From a virus (lineage: Duplodnaviria; Heunggongvirae; Uroviricota; Caudoviricetes), in the IMG/VR virus record IMGVR_UViG_2563366854_000002, positions 1-25,932 of that record: a stretch of 25,932 bases of DNA, one strand, 5' to 3'. How positions within the stretch are numbered: position 1 is the first letter of the stretch; the number at the start of each line of letters is the position of its first letter. The position numbers and the translations under genes were made by a program. Positions 4,233 to 25,645 of the stretch are shown here, piece by piece. The notes below the pieces were generated by a model. The model saw nothing but the letters and a program-made list of their open reading frames with translations, did not search any database and was not told where the DNA came from.

Positions 4233-5086
4233 GCACCATCCTGAAATGGGCGGGAAATAAAACCGCCATTATGTCCGAACTGAAAAAGCATCTTCCTGCT
4301 GGCCCGCGACTGGTTGAACCTTTCGCGGGTTCCTGTGCAGTGATGATGGAGACGGAGTACCCCAGCTATCTTGTTGCGGATATTAATCCTGATTTAATCA
4401 ACCTCTATAAAAAGGTTGCTGCTGATTGTGAATCGTTTATATCTCGCGCCAGAGTTTTATTTGAGATCGCAAACAGGGGGGGGGCTTATTACAACATAAG
4501 GCAGGAGTTTAATTACTCAACTGAAATTACTGATTTCATGAAAGCGGTATATTTCCTGTATCTCAATCGTCACGGTTACCGTGGTTTATGTCGCTATAAC
4601 AAGAGCGGGCATTTCAACATTCCCTACGGTAATTATAAAAATCCGTATTTCCCTGAAAAAGAAATTCGCGCATTTGCAGAAAAAGCCCAGCGAGCAACGT
4701 TTATCTGCGCCAGCTTTGATGAAACGCTGGCGATGTTGAAGGCGGGGGATGTGGTGTATTGCGATCCGCCGTATGACGGTACGTTTTCCGGCTATCACAC
4801 TGATGGTTTCACTGAAGATGACCAGTATCACCTGGCATCCGTTCTTGAACATCGGTCATCAGAAGGACATCCGGTCATTGTTTCTAACAGTGATACATCC
4901 CTGATCCGTTCGCTGTATCGCAATTTTACTCACCACTATATCAAGGTAAAACGCAGCATCGGTGTGGCAGCTGGCGAGGGTAAATCAGCAACAGAAATCA
5001 TTGCTGTTTCCGGGCCGCGCTGCTGGGTGGGATTTGATTATTCGCGTGGCGTGGATAGTTCTGCCGTGTACGGAGTACGTGCATGA
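4229..5086 (+). CDS. dam: DNA N6-adenine methyltransferase, Dam/D12 class (285 aa)
   Basis: Motif [10 protein letters not shown] and motif IV DPPY ([10 protein letters not shown]) seen in the translation; ATG at 4229 with GGAGG upstream; ATGA overlap with gene A at 5083-5086. Confidence 0.9.
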
Positions 5087-7497
5087 GCCATGCCGATATG
5101 AACAACTGCTGCGGCTTTAACGAGGCTGCCGCAGCGTTCTCATGGAACAGCCCGAAAAAGGCCATTAACCCTTATCTGGACCCGGCGGAAGTTGCGCCGG
5201 TTTCTGCGCTTTCAAACCTGATCGCTCTGTACGCTGCCGATAACGAACAGGAACACCTGCGCCGCGAGGCACTGAGTGATCAGGTCTGGGAGCGTTATTT
5301 CTTTAATGAATCCCGTGATCCTGTCCAGCGCGAAATGGAGCAGGATAAGCTCATTAGTCGGGCAAAGCTGGCGCATGAGCAGCAGCGTTTTAATCCAGAT
5401 ATGGTCATTCTGGCGGACGTCAATGCCCAGCCTTCCCATATCAGCAAGCCGCTGATGCAACGTATTGAATACTTCAGCAGCCTGGGCAGGCCAAAGGCTT
5501 ATTCCCGCTATTTGCGTGAGACGATTAAGCCATGTTTGGAGCGACTGGAGCATGTACGCGACAGCCAGCTATCTGCATCTTTTCGTTTTATGGCAAGCCA
5601 TGTAGGGCTGGACGGCCTGCTGATTCTGCCTGAAATGAGTCAGGATCAGGTGAAACGCCTGTCTACTCTTGTCGCTGCGCATATGAGCATGTGTCTTGAT
5701 GCCGCTTGTGGTGATTTGTACGCCACCGATGATGTTAAGCCAGAAGAAATCCGCAAGACATGGGAAAAGGTGGCAGCAGAAACCCTGCGACTGGATGTTA
5801 TCCCGCCTGCGTTTGAGCAACTTCGTCGGAAAAGAAACCGCCGTAAACCCGTGCCCTATGAACTCATTCCGGGTTCGCTGGCGCGTATGTTGTGCGCCGA
5901 TTGGTGGTACCGGAAATTATGGAAGATGCGTTGCGAATGGCGGGAAGAGCAGTTGCGTGCTGTTTGCCTGGTCAGCAAAAAAGCATCTCCCTATGTCAGC
6001 TATGAAGCCGTGATGCATAAACGTGAGCAGCGCCGTAAGTCGCTGGAGTTTTTCCGTTCTCATGAACTGGTGAACGAAGACGGCGACACGCTGGACATGG
6101 AGGATGTGGTAAACGCCAGCAGCAGCAACCCGGCGCATCGCCGCAATGAGATGATGGCCTGTGTTAAAGGTCTGGAGCTTATCGCAGAAATGCGCAGTGA
6201 CTGTGCCGTTTTCTACACTATCACCTGTCCGTCGCGTTTCCATTCCACGCTCAATAACGGCAGACCAAACCCGACCTGGACAAACGCGACGGTAAGACAA
6301 AGCAGCGATTATCTGGTCGGCATGTTTGCTGCATTTCGTAAGGCTATGCACAAAGCCGGGTTGCGCTGGTATGGCGTGCGGGTGGCTGAACCGCATCATG
6401 ACGGCACAGTTCACTGGCACCTGTTGTGTTTCATGCGCAAAAAAGACCGCCGCGCCATTACTGCATTGTTGCGTAAGTTTGCCATCCGTGAAGACCGCGA
6501 GGAGCTGGGCAATAACACGGGGCCACGCTTTAAGTCTGAGCTGATAAACCCGCGCAAAGGTACGCCAACAAGCTACATCGCGAAATACATCAGTAAGAAC
6601 ATTGACGGGCGTGGTCTGGCTGGCGAGATCAGCAAGGAAACGGGTAAATCCCTGCGTGATAACGCTGAATACGTTAATGCCTGGGCGTCTCTGCATCGTG
6701 TTCAGCAATTCCGCTTCTTTGGTATTCCGGGGCGTCAGGCTTACCGTGAACTTCGCTTGCTGGCTGGTCAGGCGGCAAGGCAACAGGGTGACAAAAAAGC
6801 AGGTGCGCCGGTACTGGATAACCCGCGTCTTGATGCCATTCTGGCTGCTGCTGATGCTGGTTGTTTTGCCACCTACATCATGAAGCAGGGCGGCGTACTG
6901 GTTCCCCGTAAATATCACCTCATCAGAACCGCTTATGAAATCAACGAAGAGCCGACCGCCTATGGCGATCACGGCATTCGTATTTATGGCATCTGGTCAC
7001 CCATTGCAGAGGGCAAGATCTGCACTCATGCAGTGAAGTGGAAAATGGTTCGTAAAGCCGTTGACGTTCAGGAGGCGGCAGCCGACCAGGGCGCTTGCGC
7101 CCCTTGGACTCGTGGCAATAACTGTCCCCTTGCTGAAAATTTGAACCAACAGGATAAAGATAAATCAGCTGATGGGGACACCAGAACGGACATTACCCGC
7201 ATGGATGACAAGGAATTGCACGATTACCTGCACAGTATGAGCAAAAAAGAGCGCCGGGAACTGGCAGCAAGGTTACGCCTAGTTAAGCTGAAACGGCGTA
7301 AAGACTACAAACAGCGAATTACAGATCATCAGCGACAGCAGCTCGTCTATGAGCTGAAGTCCAGAGGATTTGATGGCAGCGAGAAAGAGGTCGATTTACT
7401 CCTACGTGGTGGCAGTATTCCGTCAGGAGCAGGCCTGCGTATCTTCTATCGGAACCAGCGTTTGCAGGAAGATGATAAGTGGCGGAACCTGTATTAA
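5083..7497 (+). CDS. A: Phage replication initiation protein A (rolling-circle endonuclease, 804 aa)
   Basis: Translation has an HxH-type motif ([10 protein letters not shown]) and paired tyrosines ([11 protein letters not shown]) typical of P2 gpA-type initiators; position after the early operon. Confidence 0.9.
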
Positions 7498-8176: not shown

Positions 8177-8860
8177 CTATGATTGAAGGGTGACTTTTTT
8201 TAACGTATCAAAAACGATTTTCGTAAACTCATTCTCATTTCTAACATCAATATAAGCAAGGCCGCTATTGGTGATCTTGAGCTTACCGGAATATTCTAAT
8301 GAATTAACAGAGCAAACAAGCCTGTCAATTCTTATTTTTTTACCCTCTAATTCTTCTTTATAATACTTCCTAAGATCATTGCTGCCAATTATTTGCATTT
8401 TAGCTGTGGCGTAATCAGAAACTCTAACCCTTGAAATATCAAGTTGTGTTAAATTGATATTTACACTTGAAGATATTTCATTAAGCCAGTCTATAGGGTT
8501 TATGTCAATTTCTTCCAAACTAACACCTAAGCCAAGATTTTTTACCAAAGCCTGCGAAAAAGGCTTTAAAGTTCTGGGTGGGTTAGTAATCTGCATTACA
8601 GGAAGAGAGTCTAAAGCCACGCTAAAATTTGTGGTGCGATATTCGATTCTTTCAACGGTAGTTTCGCTTCCGTCAAAGCTTAATATTTTATCATGATAAA
8701 CAATACGCTCGACAAAGCGACCATTTGCAAAATCATGGCGTATTTTATCAAAAATGAACCCTTTCCCTTTATCCTCTGTAAAAGAATCAAGAGAAAGACG
8801 TCTAACGGCTGTTTCAAACTCAAGCCGTATGTTTAACTTAAGCCATTTAACCTTTTTCAT
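8177..8860 (-). CDS. Cargo operon gene 3: hypothetical protein (227 aa), no family recognised
   Basis: ATG at 8858-8860 with GAGGTGA upstream; overlaps gene 2 by 14 nt; AT-rich. Confidence 0.75.
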   Translation of the reverse strand: MKKVKWLKLNIRLEFETAVRRLSLDSFTEDKGKGFIFDKIRHDFANGRFVERIVYHDKILSFDGSETTVERIEYRTTNFSVALDSLPVMQITNPPRTLKPFSQALVKNLGLGVSLEEIDINPIDWLNEISSSVNINLTQLDISRVRVSDYATAKMQIIGSNDLRKYYKEELEGKKIRIDRLVCSVNSLEYSGKLKITNSGLAYIDVRNENEFTKIVFDTLKKVTLQS

Positions 8861-9926
8861 CTTCGTTCACCTCTGATCCTATTATTATATTATAGGCATT
8901 TTCAGCGGCGGACTCAATTAATTCACTAATATGTTTTTTCTCTTGTGCCGTTGCCGCGCGAATGGTTACATTGAAACCGTCTTCTTTTTGATTGTTTATA
9001 CCTTTAATTTGATAGGCAAAGTCACAGCATTTTTCTGAGTCTTTGAAAAATGCTTCGACGTTGATTCTGTCTCCAATTCCACTTGTCGGCTTTGAAGACC
9101 ATGCAATACGCCCGATATAATAACCTTTCTCATGTAGTTGAGAAAATATAGCTGAACTATTTACCCCTTCACCATTAAGGACGGCTTTCTTAACAAATCC
9201 GGTATCAATAGTTTCTTCCTTGTCTTCATCCTCACTAGCATCAGTACTGCGATTTAATTCGACTTTTGTTACGTCATCAGTCTCATAACCGCGTAGACCA
9301 TTCATTAATTCCTGAAAAAACTGACTTCGCAATGTAGGATCAGTTATTGCTAGTAATGATATTTCGAAGCGCTCGATAGGTTCGGACTTGATTTTAGATA
9401 GCTCGTTTTGCAAGCTCTCAATAACTTTTTTTGCCTCGGGGTTTTGAGGCATACGTACTTCAACTTTGTCAGCTCCAGGGCGAAGTTCTATTATAACATT
9501 CCGCTTGTCGATCTGACGTAATGCAGTTTTAGACAGGTCTATTTCTTCATATTTGTATTCTACTGTAAGCGAGCCATCTTTTTTAGCTACAATATTCAGG
9601 CTTTGACCTTTACTAGGGGAGCATGTTTTTTTTAGTGCTTCAGCAGCACTTTTTAATTCGGCCTGATTTGTTGAGGTTTGGAAGCTCACACTAGTAGTGC
9701 TTTCCCTTGGGTCATATGTTTTGACCAGTTTTTTTATGTGTTCTAATTCATTAAATCCGTGAGGAAGTTTGGATATTTCCTCGATTAGTATTTCCTTGTC
9801 GAGTTCTGGTGATAAAAACACACCTCGATTCAACAATAATTCATGCAACTTTGCAGCGGTTATCCTTTTATGATGTAATGCATCATAAATATTTTTATCA
9901 GTTGCGAAATATAGTTTTTTAGCCAT
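8847..9926 (-). CDS. Cargo operon gene 2: hypothetical protein (359 aa) with an acidic linker between two regions, no family recognised
   Basis: ATG at 9924-9926 with GGAG upstream; TAATG stop/start overlap with gene 1; AT-rich. Confidence 0.75.
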   Translation of the reverse strand: MAKKLYFATDKNIYDALHHKRITAAKLHELLLNRGVFLSPELDKEILIEEISKLPHGFNELEHIKKLVKTYDPRESTTSVSFQTSTNQAELKSAAEALKKTCSPSKGQSLNIVAKKDGSLTVEYKYEEIDLSKTALRQIDKRNVIIELRPGADKVEVRMPQNPEAKKVIESLQNELSKIKSEPIERFEISLLAITDPTLRSQFFQELMNGLRGYETDDVTKVELNRSTDASEDEDKEETIDTGFVKKAVLNGEGVNSSAIFSQLHEKGYYIGRIAWSSKPTSGIGDRINVEAFFKDSEKCCDFAYQIKGINNQKEDGFNVTIRAATAQEKKHISELIESAAENAYNIIIGSEVNEDEKG

Positions 9927-10927
9927 TATCGTTGCTCCATGCCGATTTGTTCAAGATTATATTCAACAACAATTTTGTCTGTCTTGTCGAAGTCAATTTT
10001 AAGAAAAAGTCTTTCATCCTCGCCTAAGAGCCAGTCTGTGCTGTATTTCTTTTTCGCTCTTTCAAAATGATGAATGGCATTTTCATTTGGGTGAATGTGA
10101 CAATGGCGTAATACGATTGGTTTACCTTCGGTTAATATCTGATAAGTTGATAACATATCAAAGAAGTAAACGAATTCGTCTACTGAATCCCCCGGTTGAT
10201 TGTAATAAACAACATATCCCTCAGGGTTTTTATCCCTGAGCCAACTGAAAGCCTCATGCTTTATTATAATGTATGGTGATGTTAATAATTCAATTGTTGC
10301 AGGTGTTGTCTGATTAATAGGGTGCTTTATTCTTGTTAGGGAAAGATCTGGATAATAATATGTGAACTTATCAGGTTGAGGAAGTTTGCCTGAACCAATT
10401 AACTTAGTTATGTCAGAAGATATGTTTATCAAATCTGATATTTTATAAGGGTCAAGCAAATGTAGTTTGATGTTTGGAGGGCAATTTATAGATGAGTGAT
10501 CTAATTTTTTTGTAATATTCTCATAGAAGTCTTTATCATATAAATTATCATGGTTATATAAGAATAATAACCCTCTTACGTTATAACCTAAAGAATCATC
10601 ATGAACATATTTCAATCGCCATTCTTCACTGACATTTGCACACTCGGTAGCTAAAGCAAGCGATGTTAAAGCTCCCTCGACTATTTTTTTCCCAATAGTA
10701 CCTTCTGCATAGCTTTTGAGGTCTGTGTTGAGATAGACCATTTCCTCCTCATATGGATCTATGTAGAAAAATACAACATCGCTTGGATGTGTTTTCTTGG
10801 AATGAGCCTCTTGGCAACAATCCCAATTCATGTCCGCTCTAGCGGCACGATCCCATTTGAACACTGAGAAAATATCATCAGAAATCTTACCCGCGACTCG
10901 TTGTATAGCCGAAGTCTCTCCACCCAT
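9926..10927 (-). CDS. Cargo operon gene 1: hypothetical protein (333 aa), no family recognised; has an R-x4-H spacing (RHCHIH) near the C-terminus
   Basis: ATG at 10925-10927 with AAGGAG 7 nt upstream; first gene of a three-gene minus-strand operon; AT-rich. Confidence 0.75.
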   Translation of the reverse strand: MGGETSAIQRVAGKISDDIFSVFKWDRAARADMNWDCCQEAHSKKTHPSDVVFFYIDPYEEEMVYLNTDLKSYAEGTIGKKIVEGALTSLALATECANVSEEWRLKYVHDDSLGYNVRGLLFLYNHDNLYDKDFYENITKKLDHSSINCPPNIKLHLLDPYKISDLINISSDITKLIGSGKLPQPDKFTYYYPDLSLTRIKHPINQTTPATIELLTSPYIIIKHEAFSWLRDKNPEGYVVYYNQPGDSVDEFVYFFDMLSTYQILTEGKPIVLRHCHIHPNENAIHHFERAKKKYSTDWLLGEDERLFLKIDFDKTDKIVVEYNLEQIGMEQR

Positions 10928-11077
10928 TTCAATCTCGCTCCTTTACAATTGCTGTGGCAATCTGCCTGAAAATCCATCTGACTTGATGAGTAATCTAACC
11001 ATATGGTTCGTATGCGTTTGTTGCATGACTATAGCGCATGAAAATGAATGATCGCAAAAGGATCGTTTTTGCTCAGT

Positions 11078-11104
11078 CCCGCCAGTTCTGGCGGGCTTTT
11101 ACTT
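11078..11104 (+). terminator. GC hairpin (cccgcca-gttc-tggcggg) followed by cttttactt, just left of cos
   Basis: Read directly; may be a terminator or part of the cos-flanking packaging region. Confidence 0.35.
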
Positions 11105-11145
11105 ATGTCATGCAGGTGCATGAAAACCACTACACAAAGCGGGCA

Positions 11146-11164
11146 GGCGTGGCGGGGATACGAG
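11146..11164. other. cos: Putative cos site (19-nt cohesive-end sequence GGCGTGGCGGGGATACGAG)
   Basis: Matches the P2 cohesive end as I recall it (GGCGAGGCGGGGAAAGCAC) at 15 of 19 positions, followed by GCGCGCGCTG as in the P2 left end; lies between the A-side region and portal Q, where cos is in P2-like prophages. Confidence 0.6.
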
Positions 11165-11232
11165 CGCGCGCTGTGCGTGGTTGTAAAAGGAAATTGTTTT
11201 CGGTATAACCACTTCCATTAGAAGGAGAATTT

Positions 11233-11478
11233 ATGAAAATTTTTGCAATAGTCATTACATGTATGCTGGCATCGATTGCAGGATTATGGCTTTATATGGA
11301 TCCTGGTTTTGATTCTATTGTTGCATTTTTGGCTGCAGTTAGCGCTTTAGCTGGATTACTTATCACTACAAAAAATAAATATAATTCTATGAGCCAATCA
11401 GTTGGTGATAATTCAACTGCTGTCCAGGCTAGAGGTGATATTAAAATTGATTGTATAAATACAGGTGATAAAAAATAA
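11233..11478 (+). CDS. Small membrane protein (81 aa, two predicted TM helices) with a C-terminal GDNSTAVQARGD motif
   Basis: ATG with AGGAG 7 nt upstream; hydrophobic segments IFAIVITCMLASIAGLWLY and IVAFLAAVSALAGLLITT; AT-rich. Confidence 0.7.
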   Translation: MKIFAIVITCMLASIAGLWLYMDPGFDSIVAFLAAVSALAGLLITTKNKYNSMSQSVGDNSTAVQARGDIKIDCINTGDKK

Positions 11479-11487
11479 GGAGGATAT

Positions 11488-12345
11488 ATGTTTAGTGATA
11501 AGCAAAAGCAACAAATAGGTAATAATTCGTATGCAATTCAAGCTGGAAATAATGTAAATGTTTCAGGGATGTCGTTTTCCGAGGTTAGAGAACTATTCAA
11601 CATTCTCTTCGAAAATCAGTTTCCAAAATTGAAAGATGTTGCTTATGCTGCAGCTCAAGAGAATGCAAAAGATTTTGAAGAGCGTGTCGTTTCGGATTTA
11701 ACAAAAAACGTTGATAGATTGATTATTGATAAATTTTGCGATCCGGACGTTCAGGCTACATTGACTGAGGCATTAAAGTCATCAGCCAGGAAGGGAAAGA
11801 AAGCTAATATGGATGTGCTTTCTCAGTTGTTAGTTGAACGAGTCTCCAATAACAATGACGATTTTAGAGATATAGTTTTAACGGAGGCAGTTACCGTCGT
11901 TCCCAAGTTAACACAGCAACAAATATCACTTATAACGATAGTTTTTCTTCTCAAGAATGTTGAGATCAAAGACCCTGTTAATGGTGTTCGATTGGATTTG
12001 TTGGAGCACAATTTTAGAAACTTTGAATCAATGTATACTAATGGGTTTAATTTGTCTCAAGCCCAGATATATCACATTCAATATGCAGGGGCTTGTTCAT
12101 GGAATACTTTTTTAGGGATGGATGTTGAAGACTATTTTATGAGTAAATATCCGACTGATATAAAAGATAAGAGTGCATATATTTCAAATCTTAAGTTAGT
12201 TGCCCCTCATGTGTCTGCATTTTTAGAAAAATTTTCAAAGAGCAACTATCAAGGAATTGAATTAACAAGTGTAGGGCAAGCAATTGCTCTGGCTGTTTTT
12301 TCAAGATACGTAGGAAGATTGGATTATAATATTTGGTTAAAGTAG
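11488..12345 (+). CDS. Hypothetical protein (285 aa), no family recognised; N-terminal GNNSYAIQAGNN motif resembles the C-terminus of the upstream small protein
   Basis: ATG with AAGGAGG 6 nt upstream; 9 nt downstream of the 81-aa gene; AT-rich. Confidence 0.75.
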   Translation: MFSDKQKQQIGNNSYAIQAGNNVNVSGMSFSEVRELFNILFENQFPKLKDVAYAAAQENAKDFEERVVSDLTKNVDRLIIDKFCDPDVQATLTEALKSSARKGKKANMDVLSQLLVERVSNNNDDFRDIVLTEAVTVVPKLTQQQISLITIVFLLKNVEIKDPVNGVRLDLLEHNFRNFESMYTNGFNLSQAQIYHIQYAGACSWNTFLGMDVEDYFMSKYPTDIKDKSAYISNLKLVAPHVSAFLEKFSKSNYQGIELTSVGQAIALAVFSRYVGRLDYNIWLK

Positions 12346-12370
12346 GGCATTATTTGCCCTACTTTATTAT
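12341..12370. terminator. Hairpin (agtagggc-attattt-gccctact) plus ttattat, a bidirectional terminator between the 285-aa gene and portal Q
   Basis: Read directly; overlaps the stop codon of the 285-aa gene and lies 3' of the convergent Q gene. Confidence 0.5.
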
Positions 12371-13398
12371 AATTCATATGGTTGGAAAGAAATTATTTCA
12401 TCACTCAACCATTCATTAATTTCTTTAATTCGCTTTTGCAGCGGTATCAATTCGTTACGGACAAACACCTTACTCGCCTTTTCCACATCCCCAAATCCCC
12501 CAACATTACTCGGCATAATCCCCATCATCTGCGGCGGAACGCGGTGTGCAGCCATCATGTCGTCTCGGCTCACGTTCTTAATGTTCAGAAACTCATCCTT
12601 TGCCGCTACCTCTGACAGCGGGATTATCTGAATCCCGTCCTTTTTGCCGTTGGGTGAATACATAAACAGGTTGCGGAAGTTGCCCGGTCCTTTAGCGCTT
12701 TTCATGGCCTGGCGGATGTTGTTCACGTCCTCCTGGTTCTGCGCGGCGTCGGTCATATACATGATGAACCCTGCATGACTGCCATTGATGTAGTATTTAC
12801 GCCGGAACAGCGTAGCGGACTCGTTCAGCAAGGCGGACGGAATGGCGGACAGATATTCCGGCAGGCCGTAAATTTCCTGGTTCAGGTCCGGCTCCATCAG
12901 GTGAAAGATACTGCCTTTAGTGAACTCGTAGGGCTGCGTGGTTAGACCGTATTGCACAAACCAGTAGGTGTCTAAGTCGATCCCGCGGCGGGTGTATTTC
13001 GCCAGCGATGGCTCCAGCGACAGAATGCCGCCGAGCCGGTTCGTTCGTTTCTCCAGATAAGCGTTACCAAACACCAAATAGTCCTGCACAAAGCGGCTGA
13101 ATGCCTGCTGGCTCAGTAATGGATGTGGGATAAATGTACTGGTCAGAATGTTGCGTTTGACGGCAATCGGTGAGCTGTGATGTACGGCGGCGCGATAGGT
13201 GCGAGCCAGCCCATCAAAACTGACCGGCGGTTCATACCATCTGTCCATCTGTACGCATTCCACATAGTCCAGCAGCTCGCGGCGGTCCAGTACCGGGATC
13301 GGATCGCCAAAGCTGAAAGCCTCGGCACTTACGCCTGTGTTTTTCGGTGCCGTAGCTTCTGTTGGCGTTGTGCTGGTTAAGGCTTCGGGTTCACTCAT
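12367..13398 (-). CDS. Q: Phage portal protein (P2 gpQ-like), 343 aa from ATG at 13396-13398
   Basis: Size and position next to the terminase large subunit; TGATG overlap with the P stop; the track start at 13401 is TTG. Confidence 0.9.
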   Translation of the reverse strand: MSEPEALTSTTPTEATAPKNTGVSAEAFSFGDPIPVLDRRELLDYVECVQMDRWYEPPVSFDGLARTYRAAVHHSSPIAVKRNILTSTFIPHPLLSQQAFSRFVQDYLVFGNAYLEKRTNRLGGILSLEPSLAKYTRRGIDLDTYWFVQYGLTTQPYEFTKGSIFHLMEPDLNQEIYGLPEYLSAIPSALLNESATLFRRKYYINGSHAGFIMYMTDAAQNQEDVNNIRQAMKSAKGPGNFRNLFMYSPNGKKDGIQIIPLSEVAAKDEFLNIKNVSRDDMMAAHRVPPQMMGIMPSNVGGFGDVEKASKVFVRNELIPLQKRIKEINEWLSDEIISFQPYEL

Positions 13399-15164
13399 CA
13401 AAAAATCTCCACAATATTGCTGGTATTGGCGGATTCGCCCTGCAGCGGTTCGTTAAACAGTGCGTGCATTGTTGCCCAGGCCAGATCGGCGTGGCTGGCT
13501 TCTTCGCTGCGGCTGGCTTCATAGGTCGGGCGGTTGCCGCTGGCGGTGGTTGCGCGCCGGATTGCCATAAATGACTGCGCTATGTCGGTGTGTCCGGCGT
13601 CAAACTCCAGACGGCGGTGACTGATAATGTCGTAGGCTTTGAGTACTAGGGCATTTTTAACATTGGGGTTGTAGACAAACTCCCGGACGGCAGGAAAGAA
13701 CGCTTTCACGTTCTCATAAACCCCGTGACCGACGCCTGTCGAGTCGATGCCGATATAGGTCACGTTGTACTGCTCGGTCAGTTTTTTGATTGCATCAGCC
13801 TGGGCGCGGAAGTCCATCCCGCGCCACTGGTGACGCTCAAGAATGCGAAACTTACCGCCTGGCACGGCTGGCGGTGCCACCACCACGCATCCGGCACTGT
13901 CGCCGTTCTGCGTACCTTTTGCCGGGTCATAACCGATCCACACTTCGCGCCAGCCAAACGGGCGCAGGGCCAGAGCATGAAAGTCGGTCCAGACTTCCCA
14001 ACTGTCCACCATGCACGCCTGCAGCTCGCTGAGCGGAAACACGGACGCGAGATCGTCCACAAACTCGCACATCAGCAGGTTCTGGTATTCGTCCGGGCTG
14101 TACTCCATGCGCAACTGGTCAAGGTCGAACAGGTTGCAGCCGCCGCGCACCGCATCTTCCACGGTGACTATCTGGCGGTATTGCCCGTCTGCGCACAGCA
14201 GGCCGGGGGCCAGATTGCTGTGGGACAGGTCGATGTCCACCTTATCGGCTTTGTTGCGCCCACGGTTGAACAGTGCACCGGACCAGAACGGATAAGCACT
14301 GTGTGTCAGGCTGGATGGCGTGGAAAAATAGGTTTGTCGCCATTTCTTGTGAATAGCCATACCAGAAGCCACTTTGCGCAGCTCCTGGAATTTCGGTATC
14401 CAGAAATATTCATCCAGATACAGATTGCCGTGGTAACTCTGGGCCGTGCGGGCATTGGTGCCGAGGAAATACAGTGTGGCCCCGTTGGGAAGCACCATCG
14501 GATCGCCTTTCAGCTCCACCTCCACTTCTTTGGCAAAGTCGATGATGTACTGTTTGAAAACGTGGGCCTGTGCCTTACTGGCAGAAAGGAAAATCTGGTT
14601 ACGTCTGGTTAGCAGGGCGTCAATCAGGGCTTCACGGGCAAAATAGAAGGTCGCGCCGATCTGGCGTGACTTCAGCAGGTTGCGGATGCGGTTGGTTTTT
14701 CCGGCTTCCCACCAGTGGCGCTGGTAGTTGAACATGGAGGAATGGAAGATTTCTTCTAGCTTCTCAATCTGTTCATCGGTGAAGACATTTTTTTCCGGCT
14801 GACGGCGCGGGCCTTTGTTGCGGTTGGCGACGTTAGGGTTTAAGTCGGCTTCGTTGCCGCCATTGTTAAACTTGCCGATCCGCGCGTGGCGCTCAGACTG
14901 GCGCGCCAGCAGGTCAATCTCTTTGAAATCTTTCCCTTCTTTGTGCTCCTTCATAATGAGCTGGCAGTAGCGTGCGGCGGTGGTGAGCTGCATCTGATCC
15001 AGCGGCCCATAGTCACCCCACTTGTCGCGTTTTTTCCAGCTGTGAACGGTTGCAACTTTCTCGCCCAGCATTTCAGCAATGCGGGCTACGCGGTATCCCT
15101 GAAAGTACAGCAGCATGGCCTGCCGACGGGGATCGAGATCTGCGGGTGTCAGTGTGGTGTTCAT
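13398..15164 (-). CDS. P: Terminase large (ATPase) subunit, P2 gpP-like (588 aa)
   Basis: Size, position between portal and scaffold genes, and P2 synteny. Confidence 0.9.
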   Translation of the reverse strand: MNTTLTPADLDPRRQAMLLYFQGYRVARIAEMLGEKVATVHSWKKRDKWGDYGPLDQMQLTTAARYCQLIMKEHKEGKDFKEIDLLARQSERHARIGKFNNGGNEADLNPNVANRNKGPRRQPEKNVFTDEQIEKLEEIFHSSMFNYQRHWWEAGKTNRIRNLLKSRQIGATFYFAREALIDALLTRRNQIFLSASKAQAHVFKQYIIDFAKEVEVELKGDPMVLPNGATLYFLGTNARTAQSYHGNLYLDEYFWIPKFQELRKVASGMAIHKKWRQTYFSTPSSLTHSAYPFWSGALFNRGRNKADKVDIDLSHSNLAPGLLCADGQYRQIVTVEDAVRGGCNLFDLDQLRMEYSPDEYQNLLMCEFVDDLASVFPLSELQACMVDSWEVWTDFHALALRPFGWREVWIGYDPAKGTQNGDSAGCVVVAPPAVPGGKFRILERHQWRGMDFRAQADAIKKLTEQYNVTYIGIDSTGVGHGVYENVKAFFPAVREFVYNPNVKNALVLKAYDIISHRRLEFDAGHTDIAQSFMAIRRATTASGNRPTYEASRSEEASHADLAWATMHALFNEPLQGESANTSNIVEIF

Positions 15165-20299: not shown

Positions 20300-20738
20300 A
20301 CTGCAGAAGGTGGACGACTGGCTTAGTGCCTTACTGGCGAATCTGGAACCAGTCGCAAGAAGCCGCATGATGCGCCAGCTGGCGCAGGAACTGCGCCGGA
20401 CACAGCAGCAGAATATCAGGATGCAGCGCAATCCAGATGGCAGCAGTTATGAACCGCGCAAGGTCACGGCGCGCAGTAAAAAAGGCCGCATCAAACGTCA
20501 GATGTTTGCAAAGCTGCGCACCACCAAATACCTGAAAACTGCCGCCAGCGCCGATTCTGCCAGCGTGCAGTTTGAAGGTAAGGTGCAGCGCATTGCCCGC
20601 GTTCACCATTATGGCCTGCGCGATCGCGTCAGCCGCAAAGGACCGGAAGTGCGTTACGCAGAGCGTCGTTTGTTGGGTCTTAATGGTGAGTCTTACGTTC
20701 TAACTCTTGATATATTGAATAGATTCCTTCTGTCTTGA
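20292..20738 (+). CDS. S: Tail completion protein S (P2 gpS-like, 148 aa) with a replaced C-terminal ~18 aa encoded by AT-rich inserted DNA
   Basis: Conserved gpS body (..IARVHHYGLRDRVSRKGPEVRYAERRLLGL) then an unrelated tail NGESYVLTLDILNRFLLS where the GC content drops. Confidence 0.8.
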   Translation: MAELQKVDDWLSALLANLEPVARSRMMRQLAQELRRTQQQNIRMQRNPDGSSYEPRKVTARSKKGRIKRQMFAKLRTTKYLKTAASADSASVQFEGKVQRIARVHHYGLRDRVSRKGPEVRYAERRLLGLNGESYVLTLDILNRFLLS

Positions 20739-21486
20739 ATTCACCATATGCCCAATGAATTGCATTTTTTTGTTCAGTCAGAATATATTTCCTAACTTTT
20801 TTAGAATAGTGAATGGTCAGTATAAAACCCAAAGAAATCCATAATAGAATAAATATGGTTGTTGGGGCAAAGGAATAGATAAAGAATTTGTCTTTAACGA
20901 AATTCTTGACTTCTTCATCAATGTAAGCATTCCCTTCATCAGTGGTTAGTAGTTTACAAAGAATTTCTTTATGTTCGATAGTTAATGATTTGTACTTCTC
21001 TGTACTGGCAGAGGATGACTCTTCGCAATCATCCTTTGATATTTCCCAATCAGGAGTGGTTAATATTGTAGCTGCAGTCGCCAGTTTTTTTGACATATAA
21101 AATGATTCACCGGATTTTATCCAATAAAGCAATGTGCTATTTGGTGGGGTTCTAATGGCTTGGATGAAAACTGGACCAAAAATATAAATTGCACACAAAA
21201 AAAGAAGTGAAAAGAGAACCGTGATTGATTTTTCAGCCCATGTGATAGTAGGCAGCCTTTTTAATGATATTCGTATAAGAAAAAAATTCAATATAAACGC
21301 AGGTATTCCTGATTTTTTCAAAATTACATCATGAGATTTTCTATATTTGAATAGTGCTCTTATAACTATCGTCACCAAAGTTATAACAGCTCCAATAATG
21401 GAAATCCATGCGGCAAGTGCCGCTGCCGGGGTGTTTAAAAATTCAGCATTAAATATATTAGAACTTATTGGATTCATAACACTCAT
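20680..21486 (-). CDS. Polytopic membrane protein (268 aa), unknown function, in an AT-rich insert between S and V
   Basis: ATG at 21484-21486 with AGGTGGA upstream; several hydrophobic helices; 19 G+C in the 60 nt of line 21181; opposite strand to the flanking late genes. Confidence 0.65.
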   Translation of the reverse strand: MSVMNPISSNIFNAEFLNTPAAALAAWISIIGAVITLVTIVIRALFKYRKSHDVILKKSGIPAFILNFFLIRISLKRLPTITWAEKSITVLFSLLFLCAIYIFGPVFIQAIRTPPNSTLLYWIKSGESFYMSKKLATAATILTTPDWEISKDDCEESSSASTEKYKSLTIEHKEILCKLLTTDEGNAYIDEEVKNFVKDKFFIYSFAPTTIFILLWISLGFILTIHYSKKVRKYILTEQKNAIHWAYGEFKTEGIYSIYQELERKTHH

Positions 21487-21589
21487 TTATCCACCTATTG
21501 GTTGTTTTTTATCCTTTTATCAATTTGTACCATCGATACCACAATTTGCAAGAAGTTATAAACAAGTTTTCAGCTGTCATCATATATCT

Positions 21590-22768
21590 ATGAACGCACA
21601 ACTAACCGAAATCATGCGCCTTATCACCAATCTGATCCGCATAGGTGTAGTCACCGAAGTGGACCGGGAAAACTGGCTTTGTCGGGTGAAAACGGGCGAC
21701 CTTGAAACCAACTGGATTAACTGGCTGACGCTGCGCGCGGGTATCACCACTGTGCTGGACAACCGCCTGATGGGGCTTACGCTGACGGATAACCGGGGCT
21801 TTGAAGCGGACCAGCTTGATCTGGAGCTGGACGACGCTGACGGAAAAATCGTGCTGCCGCGCCGTGGTGCGGTCATTACGCTGGCGCTGGGCTGGAAGGG
21901 GCAGCCGCTTTTCCCGAAAGGGGCATTCACGGTGGACGAGATTGAACACACTGGCGCACCGGACCGCCTGACTATCCGGGCGCGAAGCGCTGATTTTCGG
22001 GAAACGCTGAATACCCGTCGTGAAAAATCGTGGCACAAGACCACGGTCGGGGAAGTGGTGAAGGAAATAGCTGCGCGTCACAAACTGAAGATGGCACTGG
22101 GTAAAGACCTGTCGGATAAACCCGTGGAGCATATAGACCAGACTAATGAGAGTGACGGCAGTTTTTTGATGCGGCTGGCGCGCCAGTACGGTGCCATTGC
22201 ATCGGTGAAAAATGGCAATCTGTTATTCATCCGGCAGGGACAGGGCAAAAGCGCCAGCGGTAAACCACTGCCGGTGATCACTATCATACGTAAGGACGGC
22301 GACAGTCACCGCTTTACCCTGGCAGATCGCGGAGCTTACACGGGGGTAATTGCCAGCTGGTTGCATACCCGCGAACCCGCGAAGAAAGAAAGCACTACGG
22401 TGAAGCGTAAGCGCAGGACTAAGAAGCAGAAGAAAGAGCCGGAAGCGAAGCAGGGCGATTACCTGGTGGGGACGGATGAAAACGTGCTGGTACTTAATCG
22501 CACTTATGCCAACCGGAGCAACGCCGAACGAGCGGCAAAAATGCAGTGGGAACGCCTGCAACGCGGCGTTGCGTCATTCTCGCTACAACTGGCGGAAGGG
22601 CGGGCAGATCTCTACACGGAAATGCCTGTGAAGGTCAGTGGTTTTAAACAGCCGATAGATGATGCGGAATGGACTATTACCACCCTGACGCATACTGTCA
22701 GCCCGGATAACGGTTTTACGACCAGTCTGGAGCTTGAAGTGAAGATTGATGATTTCGAAATGGAATGA
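21590..22768 (+). CDS. Chimeric in-frame ORF: N-terminal ~48 aa of baseplate spike V fused to late control/tail protein D (392 aa)
   Basis: The first ~48 aa (MNAQLTEIMRLITNLIRIGVVTEVDRENWLCRVKTGDLETNWINWLTLRAG) match the gpV N-terminus pattern; the rest (LTLTDNRGFEADQLDLELDD...FTTSLELEVKIDDFEME) matches gpD; no W, J, I, H, G, F, E, T or U genes are present. Confidence 0.8.
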   Translation: MNAQLTEIMRLITNLIRIGVVTEVDRENWLCRVKTGDLETNWINWLTLRAGITTVLDNRLMGLTLTDNRGFEADQLDLELDDADGKIVLPRRGAVITLALGWKGQPLFPKGAFTVDEIEHTGAPDRLTIRARSADFRETLNTRREKSWHKTTVGEVVKEIAARHKLKMALGKDLSDKPVEHIDQTNESDGSFLMRLARQYGAIASVKNGNLLFIRQGQGKSASGKPLPVITIIRKDGDSHRFTLADRGAYTGVIASWLHTREPAKKESTTVKRKRRTKKQKKEPEAKQGDYLVGTDENVLVLNRTYANRSNAERAAKMQWERLQRGVASFSLQLAEGRADLYTEMPVKVSGFKQPIDDAEWTITTLTHTVSPDNGFTTSLELEVKIDDFEME

Positions 22769-23312: not shown

Positions 23313-24998
23313 TTATCCTAATCCTGGCCATACCATGACGATGATTGTCCCTGCCAGCGTCAGCAGGACGTTGGCGATTGCATAGGTGCCCGCATAGCCC
23401 AGCGCCGGGATGTTACTGCGAGCTGTATCACTGATGATCTCCATTGCCGGCGCGCAGGTACGTGCGCCCATCATTGCGCCGAACAACAGCGCGCGGTTCA
23501 TTCGCAATACATAAGCACCGAACAAGAAACAGATAACCACGGGCACCAGACTGACAATCAATCCGGCAATCAACATCTGACCGCCAATCGCGCCCAGGCC
23601 GTTATTAATACCGCTACCGGCGCTCAGACCAACGCCTGCCATAAACACCATCAAGCCGAACTCTTTCACCATGCTTAATGCACCCTGCGGAATGTAACCG
23701 AAGGTCGGGTGGTTAGCACGCATAAAGCCCAGCATAATTCCGGCGAATAACAACCCGGCAGCGTTCCCCATGCCGAAACTGAATGTGCTGAACTGGAAGG
23801 TGATCATCCCGATCATCAGCCCAATAACAAAGAAGGCGCAGAATGCCAGCAGGTCAGTGACCTGGCTGTGAATCGAGATAAAGCCGATGCGATCGGCGAT
23901 GGTTTTTACGCGGCGGGCATCGCCGCTGACTTGTAAAACGTCACCTTTGTTAAGCACGACGTTGTCATCTATCGGCATCTCAATCTGGCTACGAATGACG
24001 CGGTTAAGGAAGCAACCGTGATCGGTCAACTTCAGTTGTGCGAGACGTTTACCTACAGCGTTATGGTTTTTAACGACCACTTCTTCAGTGACGATACGCA
24101 TGTCGAGAAGGTCACGATCGAAAACTTCTTTACCGTTACGGAAGCTGGGATCGAGTCGGGCATGGGCGTCGGGATAGCCTACCAACGCTATTTCATCGCC
24201 CATTTGTAGCACGGCATCACCGTCTGGATTTGCCAGAATCCCGTTACGTCGAATACGTTCAATGTAGCAGCCGGTTTGTCGATAAATACCCAGTTCACGC
24301 AGATTTTTGCCGTCGGTCCAGGCCACCAGTTCCGGGCCGACGCGATAGGCGCGGATCACCGGTAAATAAACCTTACGGTTGGCATCAGTGTCCAGGCCAC
24401 GTTCGCGGGCGATTTGCTGGGCGCTGGTCTGTAAGTCCTGATGCTGCAATTTCGGCAAGTAACGCGCACCAACAATCAAACTCACCAGACCGATTAAATA
24501 GGTTAAGGCATACCCGAGGCTCAGATTATCCAGTGCCAGTGAGAGCTGCCTGCTTTCCATGCCGGAATGACGCAGTGTATCGCCAGCACCGACCAGAACC
24601 GGTGTCGACGTCATAGAGCCTGCTAACATACCGGCCGTCAGGCCAATATCCCAGCCAAACAGCTTACCTAACCCTAAGGCGATCACCAGCGCACTGCCAA
24701 CCATCACCAGTGCTAACATTAGGTAATTTTTCCCATCGCGAAAAAAAATGGAAAAAAAGTTCGGTCCGGCTTCGACCCCGACGCAGAAAATAAACAGCAT
24801 AAAGCCAAGATTAAGCGCATCGGTGTTAATGCTGAAATGTTGTTGGCCTAATAACAGCGATACGACTAAAACGCCAATGGAATTACCCAGTTGGATCGAA
24901 CCAAGTCGTAACTTTCCGAGACATAGCCCAAGCGCGAGGACCACAAATAATAACAGAATGTAATTCCCATTTAACAATTCGGCGACGTTTATATTCAC
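23313..24998 (-). CDS. ybjL: Putative transport protein YbjL (AAE-family membrane transporter with TrkA-C-like domains, 561 aa)
   Basis: Translation ([30 protein letters not shown]..., 561 aa) matches E. coli YbjL as I recall it; flanked by ybjM and grxA as in E. coli. Confidence 0.95.
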
Positions 24999-25267: not shown

Positions 25268-25645
25268 GTGAAACATAAACAACGTTGGGCGGGGGCAATC
25301 TGCTGTTTTGTCCTCTTCATTGTGGTGTGCCTTTTTCTGGCGACGCACATGAAAGGCGCTTTTCGGGCTGCCGGGCATCCTGAAATCGGCTTGCTATTTT
25401 TCATTCTTCCTGGAGCAGTCGCCAGCTTCTTTTCACAGCGTAGAGAAGTCCTGAAACCTCTGTTTGGCGCAATGCTGGCGGCACCCTGTTCGATGCTCAT
25501 TATGCGGCTGTTTTTTTCACCGACGCGCTCATTCTGGCAAGAGCTGGCATGGTTACTAAGCGCGGTGTTCTGGTGTGCGCTGGGGGCACTGTGTTTCTTA
25601 TTTATCAGTAGTTTGTTTAAACCACAGCACAGAAAAAATCAGTAA
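25268..25645 (+). CDS. ybjM: Inner membrane protein YbjM (125 aa)
   Basis: GTG start with AGGAGG 5 nt upstream; 125-aa hydrophobic protein in the expected position between ybjL and grxA. Confidence 0.9.
   Translation: MKHKQRWAGAICCFVLFIVVCLFLATHMKGAFRAAGHPEIGLLFFILPGAVASFFSQRREVLKPLFGAMLAAPCSMLIMRLFFSPTRSFWQELAWLLSAVFWCALGALCFLFISSLFKPQHRKNQ

Follow-up and report, generated by a model that had tools for sequence, protein, structure and literature searches.

The stretch of viral DNA analysed here, positions 1 to 25,932 of the IMG/VR record IMGVR_UViG_2563366854_000002 (the window, 25,932 nucleotides in full), is a P2-like Escherichia coli prophage, 100% identical to strain H3 over the query. 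Between its gpA gene (5083-7497) and its portal gene Q (12367-13401), directly after cos, it carries a two-gene module encoding a small membrane protein of 81 amino acids and a protein of 285 amino acids, which share a 21-residue motif and which we discuss as a candidate abortive-infection system. The initial annotation had described two plus-strand genes with strong Shine-Dalgarno sequences in about 1.2 kb of AT-rich DNA, at a place where P2 has a short spacer, and this description holds. Both open reading frames (ORFs) are preceded by such a sequence (AGGAG at 11223-11227 and AGGAGG at 11478-11483), the distance from cos to the Q stop codon is 1,202 nt compared with 167 nt in P2 (including the terminator tQ), and the G+C content over 11201-12400 is 0.32-0.37 versus 0.49-0.58 in the portal and terminase genes. 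The features of the interval are the following.

10928..11172, no strand: cos-flanking DNA, kept in other P2-like prophages, holding a cos-like 19-mer and a GC hairpin
11173..12366, plus strand: AT-rich cargo segment, the two-gene module between cos and the portal (Q) stop
11181..11209, plus strand: candidate sigma-70 promoter (TTGTAA, 17 nt, TATAAC), read from the sequence
11233-11478, plus strand: small ORF, 81 amino acids, putative effector, PHROG 27656
11389..11451, plus strand: effector-side motif, residues 53-73 of the small protein, MSQSVGDNSTAVQARGDIKID
11488-12345, plus strand: large ORF, 285 amino acids, LPO_1073/Vpar_1526 family, putative sensor
11503..11565, plus strand: sensor-side motif, residues 6-26 of the large protein, QKQQIGNNSYAIQAGNNVNVS
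12338..12366, no strand: 12-bp hairpin between the convergent LPO_1073 and portal genes, overlapping the TAG stop codon at 12343-12345

An alignment of four P2-like prophages is invariant up to about 11170-11172, and the cargo differs beyond this border. The segment 11000-11172 is matched in about 1,250 of 5,426 complete E. coli genomes, and just six of the 5,426 carry the entire cargo segment with both genes. The cos-like 19-mer, GGCGTGGCGGGGATACGAG at 11146-11164, equals P2 cosL (GGCGAGGCGGGGAAAGCAC) at 14 of 19 positions by our own count. About 50 nt upstream of it, a GC-rich hairpin at 11078-11095 (CCCGCCAG-TTCT-GGCGGG, then a T run) is conserved in all four aligned prophages and may act as a terminator or belong to the region recognised by the terminase. 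At the other end of the cargo, the hairpin at 12338..12366 is likely a bidirectional terminator, and in P2 the terminator tQ lies at the equivalent place. The candidate promoter was skipped by a consensus promoter scan because its -10 hexamer ends in C. Both ORFs share one reading frame and are separated by TAA and 9 nt (11476-11490). This arrangement recurs at locus L004 and at none of the other loci described below, where the gaps range from -4 to 14 nt; a fusion protein made by programmed read-through of the stop codon is therefore unlikely, and we rejected it.

Hydropathy analysis of the small protein bears out the two hydrophobic helices that had been described from the sequence, transmembrane (TM) segments TM1 at about residues 3-21 and TM2 at about residues 29-45. 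They are joined by a short acidic loop, YMDPGFDS, and TM2 is followed by a lysine-rich linker. Judging from the hydropathy, this loop and the lysine-rich segment, both termini are probably cytoplasmic, so that the tail motif would lie in the same compartment as the N-terminus of the putative sensor. The protein could be assigned to PHROG 27656 alone, a family of unknown function, and its match to the generic “2TM effector” model of PADLOC was weak (E = 0.017). It shares two TM helices and a polar or charged tail with class II holins, but these sit in a lysis cassette together with an endolysin, whereas the small gene is paired with an LPO_1073 gene and most of its copies are not phage-borne; a search for holin families in Pfam gave no match, and we do not count the protein among class II holins. 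A word-index search with the small protein returned close relatives only, and its family was recovered through genomic neighbourhoods. Within this family the motif is the best-conserved part, with a majority-residue frequency of 0.68 compared with 0.43 and 0.55 in the TM helices and 0.27 in the linker and C-terminal end. The E. coli allele reads STAVQARGD on the effector side, with A63 and R67 where 95% of the homologues have Gly, and is common (404 contigs); the sensor-side motif is unchanged alongside it. The corresponding Salmonella allele P0122 (88% identical) and P0123 from an ENA metagenome assembly (91%) read SIGVQAGGD.

The large protein matches NCBIfam NF045477 with an E-value of 3e-72 (243.4 bits, cut-off 45), its residues 27-284 covering positions 1-257 of the 257-position profile. 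Pfam PF28206 is precomputed on this protein and on all homologues, and the RefSeq annotation agrees with an assignment to LPO_1073/Vpar_1526. The initial annotation had stated that neither protein carries a nameable signature; this does not stand for the 285-residue protein as far as family names go, and it does stand for function, as both NF045477 and PF28206 are families of unknown function. A full search with a hidden Markov model (HMM) gave at least 2,346 cluster representatives at 50% identity (E <= 1e-3). The AlphaFold 2 (AF2) model of the large protein is all-alpha (pLDDT 80.9) with a disordered segment at residues 1-25 (pLDDT below 50), and Foldseek found no significant structural relative of this model and no relative with a solved fold. 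PADLOC-DB 2.0.0 gave no match to the large protein, and no NB-ARC, NACHT, TGP, Bell, HeLo, TIR or CHAT domain was detected in either protein with Pfam, NCBIfam and PADLOC. A similarity of residues 119-167 to T4 Cef (PF24050, E = 0.007; PHROG 1354, E = 0.0012) was treated as chance, being found in two of 23 family members.

The motif that links the two proteins has the consensus QxQxV...SxGIQAG[RG][DN]VxV both in the tail of the small protein and at the N-terminus of the large one, and in both it can be written in a 21-residue register, Q(-12) x Q(-10) ... S(-4) x [G/A][I/V] Q A G [R/G][D/N] V x [I/V]. The initial annotation had counted seven identities over 17 residues in a gap-free alignment made by eye, and had proposed a profile search and a comparison with shuffled controls. 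The alignment is real, while the count has to be corrected to six over the 18 residues concerned, or seven over the 21-residue register, which adds an upstream Q. Ungapped comparison of the two proteins with BLOSUM62 gives a best segment score of 45, compared with 26.3 +/- 3.9 in shuffles, and one of 3,000 shuffles reaches 45. For the profile search, an HMM was built from the small-protein tails of other genomes with the tail of the window excluded. This tail-only model scored above 10 bits on 175 of 292 LPO_1073-family proteins, in all cases with a match starting within the first 60 residues and in 161 cases within the first 15, and on shuffled copies it gave nothing above 5 bits.

Five residues of the sensor-side motif (Q8, A16, Q18, A19 and G20) are invariant in 23 large-protein homologues that are about 40% identical to one another, which makes the N-terminal motif characteristic of the family as a whole. 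Across 42 motif copies from both sides, the Q and the Q-A are invariant. Both protein families have kept the motif in at least seven groups of phylum or class rank, and every pair has it in the C-terminal tail of the small protein and at the N-terminus of the large one, which strongly supports the earlier suggestion of a shared interaction or targeting motif. Moreover, the two sides of a pair resemble each other more than those of different pairs: over the 21 residues, effector-side and sensor-side motifs are 47% identical in cognate and 43% identical in non-cognate combinations (permutation p = 0.007), and the BLOSUM62 scores are 50.3 for cognate and 43.1 for non-cognate combinations, with five of 100,000 permutations reaching the cognate score (5e-5). 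In composition, the motif is enriched in Q (2.7-fold), G (2.6-fold) and N (1.7-fold), poor in L (0.10-fold) and K (0.45-fold), and free of P.

We examined 22 loci from species-representative genomes as well as further contigs. Each full-length large gene has a small membrane-protein ORF directly upstream on the same strand, which is frameshifted in one case (L019), and the two genes either overlap, by up to 4 nt, or are separated by up to 14 nt. The pair is thus kept together at all full-length loci examined, in answer to the question of co-conservation that the initial annotation had raised. The small ORF encodes two hydrophobic helices, but one in Vibrio. Taxa with the pair include Beta-, Gamma- and Alphaproteobacteria, Brocadiaceae, Chlorobiaceae, Polaribacter, Bryobacterales and Desulfomonile, and most family members are located outside phages. 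A full-length locus holds one effector-side and one or two sensor-side motifs, and L019 scored for the effector-side copy only. In Burkholderiaceae bacterium 16 (L012) and Nitrospirillum viridazoti (L016), a single small gene is accompanied by two LPO_1073 paralogues, each with an N-terminal motif, which suggests that several sensors may share one effector.

Apart from these two-gene loci, the LPO domain is found fused to exchangeable modules. In the protein P0235, a single chain contains one TM helix, the motif twice in tandem and the LPO domain, and in P0186, P0223 and P0254 a TM helix is fused to the LPO domain; a motif-like stretch between the two can be read in P0186 and P0223 and is degenerate in P0254. 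In P0217, P0236, P0261 and P0259, the LPO domain instead carries an N-terminal HNH nuclease domain, which in the first three matches the PADLOC models of CBASS SAVED-HNH and other endonuclease effectors, SduA and PDC-M68A (1e-14 to 1e-28) and in P0259 was called from the HNH sequence motif only. HNH-type fusions amount to about 16 clusters, and the two that we examined lie at prophage ends, adjoining recombinase or small-terminase genes. Sensors or regulators of abortive-infection systems are usually recognised by just such a conserved domain with interchangeable killing modules.

The interval between gpA and gpQ of P2-like phages is an established defence hotspot (PMC9122126; PMC13586616), and the module, as variable genes between A and Q, is cargo of this kind. 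In strain FDAARGOS_433, the same left junction carries the reverse transcriptase and effector of retron St85 instead of the pair. The slot between cos and Q is also taken by versions of the pair in P2-like prophages of Klebsiella variicola (39% identical) and Pantoea conspicua (42%), and by their divergence (39-42% identity) the three pair lineages appear to be independent arrivals. Outside this slot, the pair lies 1.3 kb from a complete type I-B retron in Comamonas, in an integron-like cassette array with toxin-antitoxin genes in Vibrio, and among transposases and an Mrr-family gene in Pseudoalteromonas. The initial annotation had likened a small membrane protein with a soluble partner to a defence-type pair, and the hotspot, the retron junction, the three divergent versions found in this slot, the Comamonas retron and the HNH fusions provide contextual support for this comparison.

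On the other side of cos, the window holds three overlapping minus-strand genes at 8177-10927 (227, 359 and 333 amino acids), which match Hp3, Hp2 and Hp1 of PADLOC over their full length (1e-157 to 1e-248) and, by this similarity, probably represent the three-gene (3HP) system that protects against P1 in Rousset et al. 2022. The hotspot therefore holds two separate cargo modules, one on each side of cos. A version of the pair with 98% identity is common in Salmonella; among the four sites listed there, three are P2-like prophages that have large deletions directly behind the portal gene. At the Salmonella enterica loci L035, L036 and L038, the pair is present without the 3HP genes, and the portal gene is followed by ogr or by the tail genes U and D, so that the pair has been kept while morphogenesis genes decay.

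The prophage of the window is defective as well. Its ORF at 21347-22768 has a gpV-like N-terminus (Phage_base_V) merged with a gpD domain (Phage_GPD), probably through loss of the tail genes that are normally situated between V and D. Immediately behind it come host-type genes, one for an Asp-Al_Ex/TrkA_C permease on the minus strand (23313-24998) and ybjM (25268-25645). The two loci of defence type have remained intact in this remnant. A further AT-rich island (G+C of about 0.33) at 20680-21486 on the minus strand, between the tail genes S and V, encodes a 268-residue DUF6216 protein; it had no PADLOC match and may be further accessory cargo.

Taken together, the most likely explanation, to which we give about even odds, is that the module is a two-component abortive-infection system carried as cargo of the cos-proximal defence hotspot. 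In such a system, both proteins would be expressed in the lysogen. The 81-residue protein would form a helical hairpin in the inner membrane with both termini in the cytoplasm, exposing a tail of about 36 residues with the Q/G/N-rich 21-residue motif, and the 285-residue protein would act as a cytoplasmic, all-alpha sensor whose disordered N-terminus bears the same motif. Upon infection, the sensor would change state or oligomerise, after which its N-terminal motifs and the effector tails would come together in a homotypic assembly, perhaps templated by an amyloid-like cross-beta structure. Clustering of the hairpins would produce a membrane lesion, and the cell would be killed or arrested before the phage completes its cycle. 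The amyloid state of the motif is a tentative part of this model, with the odds somewhat against it. The broader proposition that the pair represents a new and widespread amyloid-signalling immune family, in which a RHIM-like motif templates a two-helix effector and the sensor has a new fold, is on balance doubtful.

Several observations weigh against this interpretation. Neither protein of the pair has a significant PADLOC match, the arrangement appears in Table S5A of Rousset et al. only as “hypothetical” genes (PMC9122126), and some loci, such as the one of Burkholderia between GST and MarR genes, are without obvious defence neighbours. In contrast to NLR receptors, the sensor contains no NTPase, nor can any other engine for oligomerisation be recognised in it. 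AF2 gives the motif no ordered structure, either in the sensor alone or in the natural fusion P0235, where the motif region (residues 5-85) is disordered with pLDDT below 50; with regard to cross-beta fibrils, these monomer models speak neither way. In the HNH fusions the motif scores less than 8 bits against the motif HMM. The cognate signal stems mainly from the R/G position three residues after the invariant Q, and the covariation could reflect few evolutionary events. Moreover, the A-V-Q-A-R effector allele of the window departs from the family consensus and may be attenuated or altered in specificity. As for the resemblance to RHIM discussed below, the RHIM of RIPK1 scores 7.4 bits against the motif HMM (top 0.1%, approximately, of 3,501 background ORFs), the RIPK3 sequence that we used scores below zero, and a search of the PDB with the motif profile returned no chain at E <= 10; we keep the likeness as a resemblance and not as demonstrated homology.

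Other explanations of the shared motif and of the pairing have to be considered. The two genes could work like a toxin-antitoxin pair, the small hairpin protein being toxic in the manner of a holin and the N-terminal strand of the LPO_1073 protein docking onto the tail motif as a heterodimeric beta-zipper rather than as a polymer, until infection or loss of the sensor releases the toxin. The tight coupling or overlap of the genes with the small gene first would suit such an arrangement, as would the size, the two TM helices found by hydropathy and the charged tail, which resemble those of class II holins; likewise, the covariation of cognate motifs is as compatible with a 1:1 interface as with templating, and AF2 shows no polymer-prone fold. 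However, the TM helix, motif and domain are combined in one polypeptide in P0235 and P0186, which is hard to reconcile with an antitoxin that dissociates, the replacement of the TM helix by HNH in other fusions favours the logic of a sensor that activates an effector, and the composition of the motif is typical of self-assembling signalling motifs. We therefore regard this explanation as unlikely, though to be taken seriously. It is also conceivable, if improbable, that the pair is a moron without an immune role, serving the phage or the host in some accessory way, for example in superinfection exclusion at the membrane, lysis timing or envelope stress, with the motif acting only as a membrane tether for the soluble protein. 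Cargo unrelated to defence, such as partition systems and cytolethal distending toxin, is known from the gpA-gpQ hotspot (Rousset et al., PMC9122126), some chromosomal loci have ordinary metabolic neighbours, and PADLOC gave no significant match. Against this, most members lie outside phages, where a role in lysis timing is unlikely, the HNH fusions share their N-terminal domain with CBASS and Shedu-type proteins and would be difficult to account for other than in conflict systems, the pair repeatedly adjoins retrons, the 3HP system or toxin-antitoxin cassettes, and it has persisted in prophages whose tail genes are gone.

A third explanation concerns history rather than function. An ancestral protein with TM helix, motif and LPO domain might have been split with duplication of the junction, leaving the motif with no coupling role at present. 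Fused architectures exist (P0235, P0186, P0223 and P0254), and in the window as well as in L004 the ORFs stand in the same frame, a stop codon and 9 nt apart. Such a fission may well be how the motif came to be present twice, but it does not explain the constraint on both copies: they are strongly conserved across phyla, down to the Q and Q-A found in all 42, the motif is more conserved than the TM helices while the flanking linker varies freely, the frame relation is not kept among loci (4-nt overlap to 14-nt gap), and cognate covariation is present. As an account of the present motif, a functionless remnant is thus highly improbable.

If an abortive-infection function were confirmed, the 1.1-kb two-gene cassette would be among the smallest immune systems composed of a sensor and an effector, and it would lend itself to studying how a signal passes between proteins by way of a peptide of about 21 residues. 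It would also give a function to the orphan LPO_1073/Vpar_1526 family, with its thousands of clusters, and add a new sensor fold. Shared-motif signalling, perhaps of an amyloid type, in bacteria rests on one experimentally validated system (Bab/Agp, see below), and its known range would grow to include unicellular Proteobacteria, anammox bacteria, Bacteroidota and temperate phages. Should the broader amyloid-signalling proposition hold, prion-like signalling would be common in unicellular bacteria and temperate phages rather than a multicellular speciality, and a prokaryotic or viral root for RHIM-type motifs would become possible. Furthermore, a simple rule for discovery would follow, namely to look for pairs of C-terminal and N-terminal motifs in consecutive genes of prophage hotspots. 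Even without an amyloid state, the coupling by a motif and the swapping of effectors, be it a TM helix or an HNH nuclease, need an explanation.

The closest known counterpart is Bab/Agp (BASS11) of E. coli ECOR25, a validated abortive-infection pair of adjacent genes in a prophage hotspot, with an amyloid motif of about 20 amino acids at the C-terminus of the effector and the N-terminus of the sensor (10.1101/2024.11.07.622273). Our pair resembles it in the adjacency of the genes, the small membrane-targeting effector, the C-terminal and N-terminal placement of a Q/N/G-rich motif and the location in an E. coli prophage hotspot. It differs in the effector, which in Bab/Agp has a Bell (“Babybell”) domain and here is a two-helix TM hairpin. 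The motif is set apart from BASS11 by its protein partners and by its G-phi-Q-phi-G core, and not by a comparison of the motif sequences. Our literature search found no description of a BASS12 or later family and no paper mentioning LPO_1073, PF28206, NF045477, WP_000490525 or WP_000687980; Vpar_1526 was found solely in a paper on the outer-membrane proteome of Veillonella.

BASS motifs in general are enriched in Q/N/G (as well as V and I), depleted in K/P/L, about 21-25 amino acids long and 43-56% identical between the two sides (Dyrka et al., 10.1101/2020.01.06.895854). The same is found here: adjacent genes carry homologous motifs at their ends, with a length and a BASS-like composition in this range and 47% identity. 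With the NLR/Bell pairs of BASS1-10 and with HET-S/NWD2, the pair has in common the positions of the motifs and the adjacency of the genes, often with overlap, a layout by which amyloid-signalling pairs are defined; however, neither an NB-ARC or NACHT NTPase nor a repeat sensor domain is part of this pair. The tandem double motif of P0235 recalls the two pseudo-repeats of HET-s. While BASS motifs have been reported mainly from multicellular Actinobacteria and Cyanobacteria, and NLR and Bell proteins as rare in Proteobacteria (10.1101/2020.01.06.895854), the LPO_1073 family is abundant in unicellular Proteobacteria and is phage-borne.

A prophage pair of similar layout is RexA/RexB of lambda, with a soluble sensor of about 280 amino acids and a small polytopic membrane protein believed to cause depolarisation of the cell on infection. 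The membrane component RexB has four TM helices, and the Rex proteins are not known to share a motif; our profile and structure searches gave no Rex match and thus no similarity of sequence or fold to either protein. CBASS, Pycsar and Shedu resemble the LPO fusions in coupling a regulatory domain to either a short TM module or an HNH nuclease, but neither a cyclase nor DUF4263 nor a nucleotide-binding domain of the SAVED or CARF type is present here, and the coupling appears to run from protein to protein through a shared peptide motif rather than through a second messenger. With regard to the motif itself, a G-phi-Q-phi-G signature has been given for RHIM, PP and BASS3 (10.1101/2020.01.06.895854), and the consensus core G-I-Q-A-G, present in about 95% of the small-protein homologues and replaced by A-V-Q-A-R in the window, fits this signature. 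The NSTGIQAG and NSSGIQAG of homologues are close to the NSTGIQIG of human and the NSSGIQIG of mouse RIPK1 (PDB 8z93 and 8ib0), a likeness of about 8 residues. Overall, the pair is of a known kind with respect to abortive-infection pairs in prophage hotspots and signalling by a shared motif, and it is new in its sensor fold, its two-helix effector, its motif family and its wide distribution.

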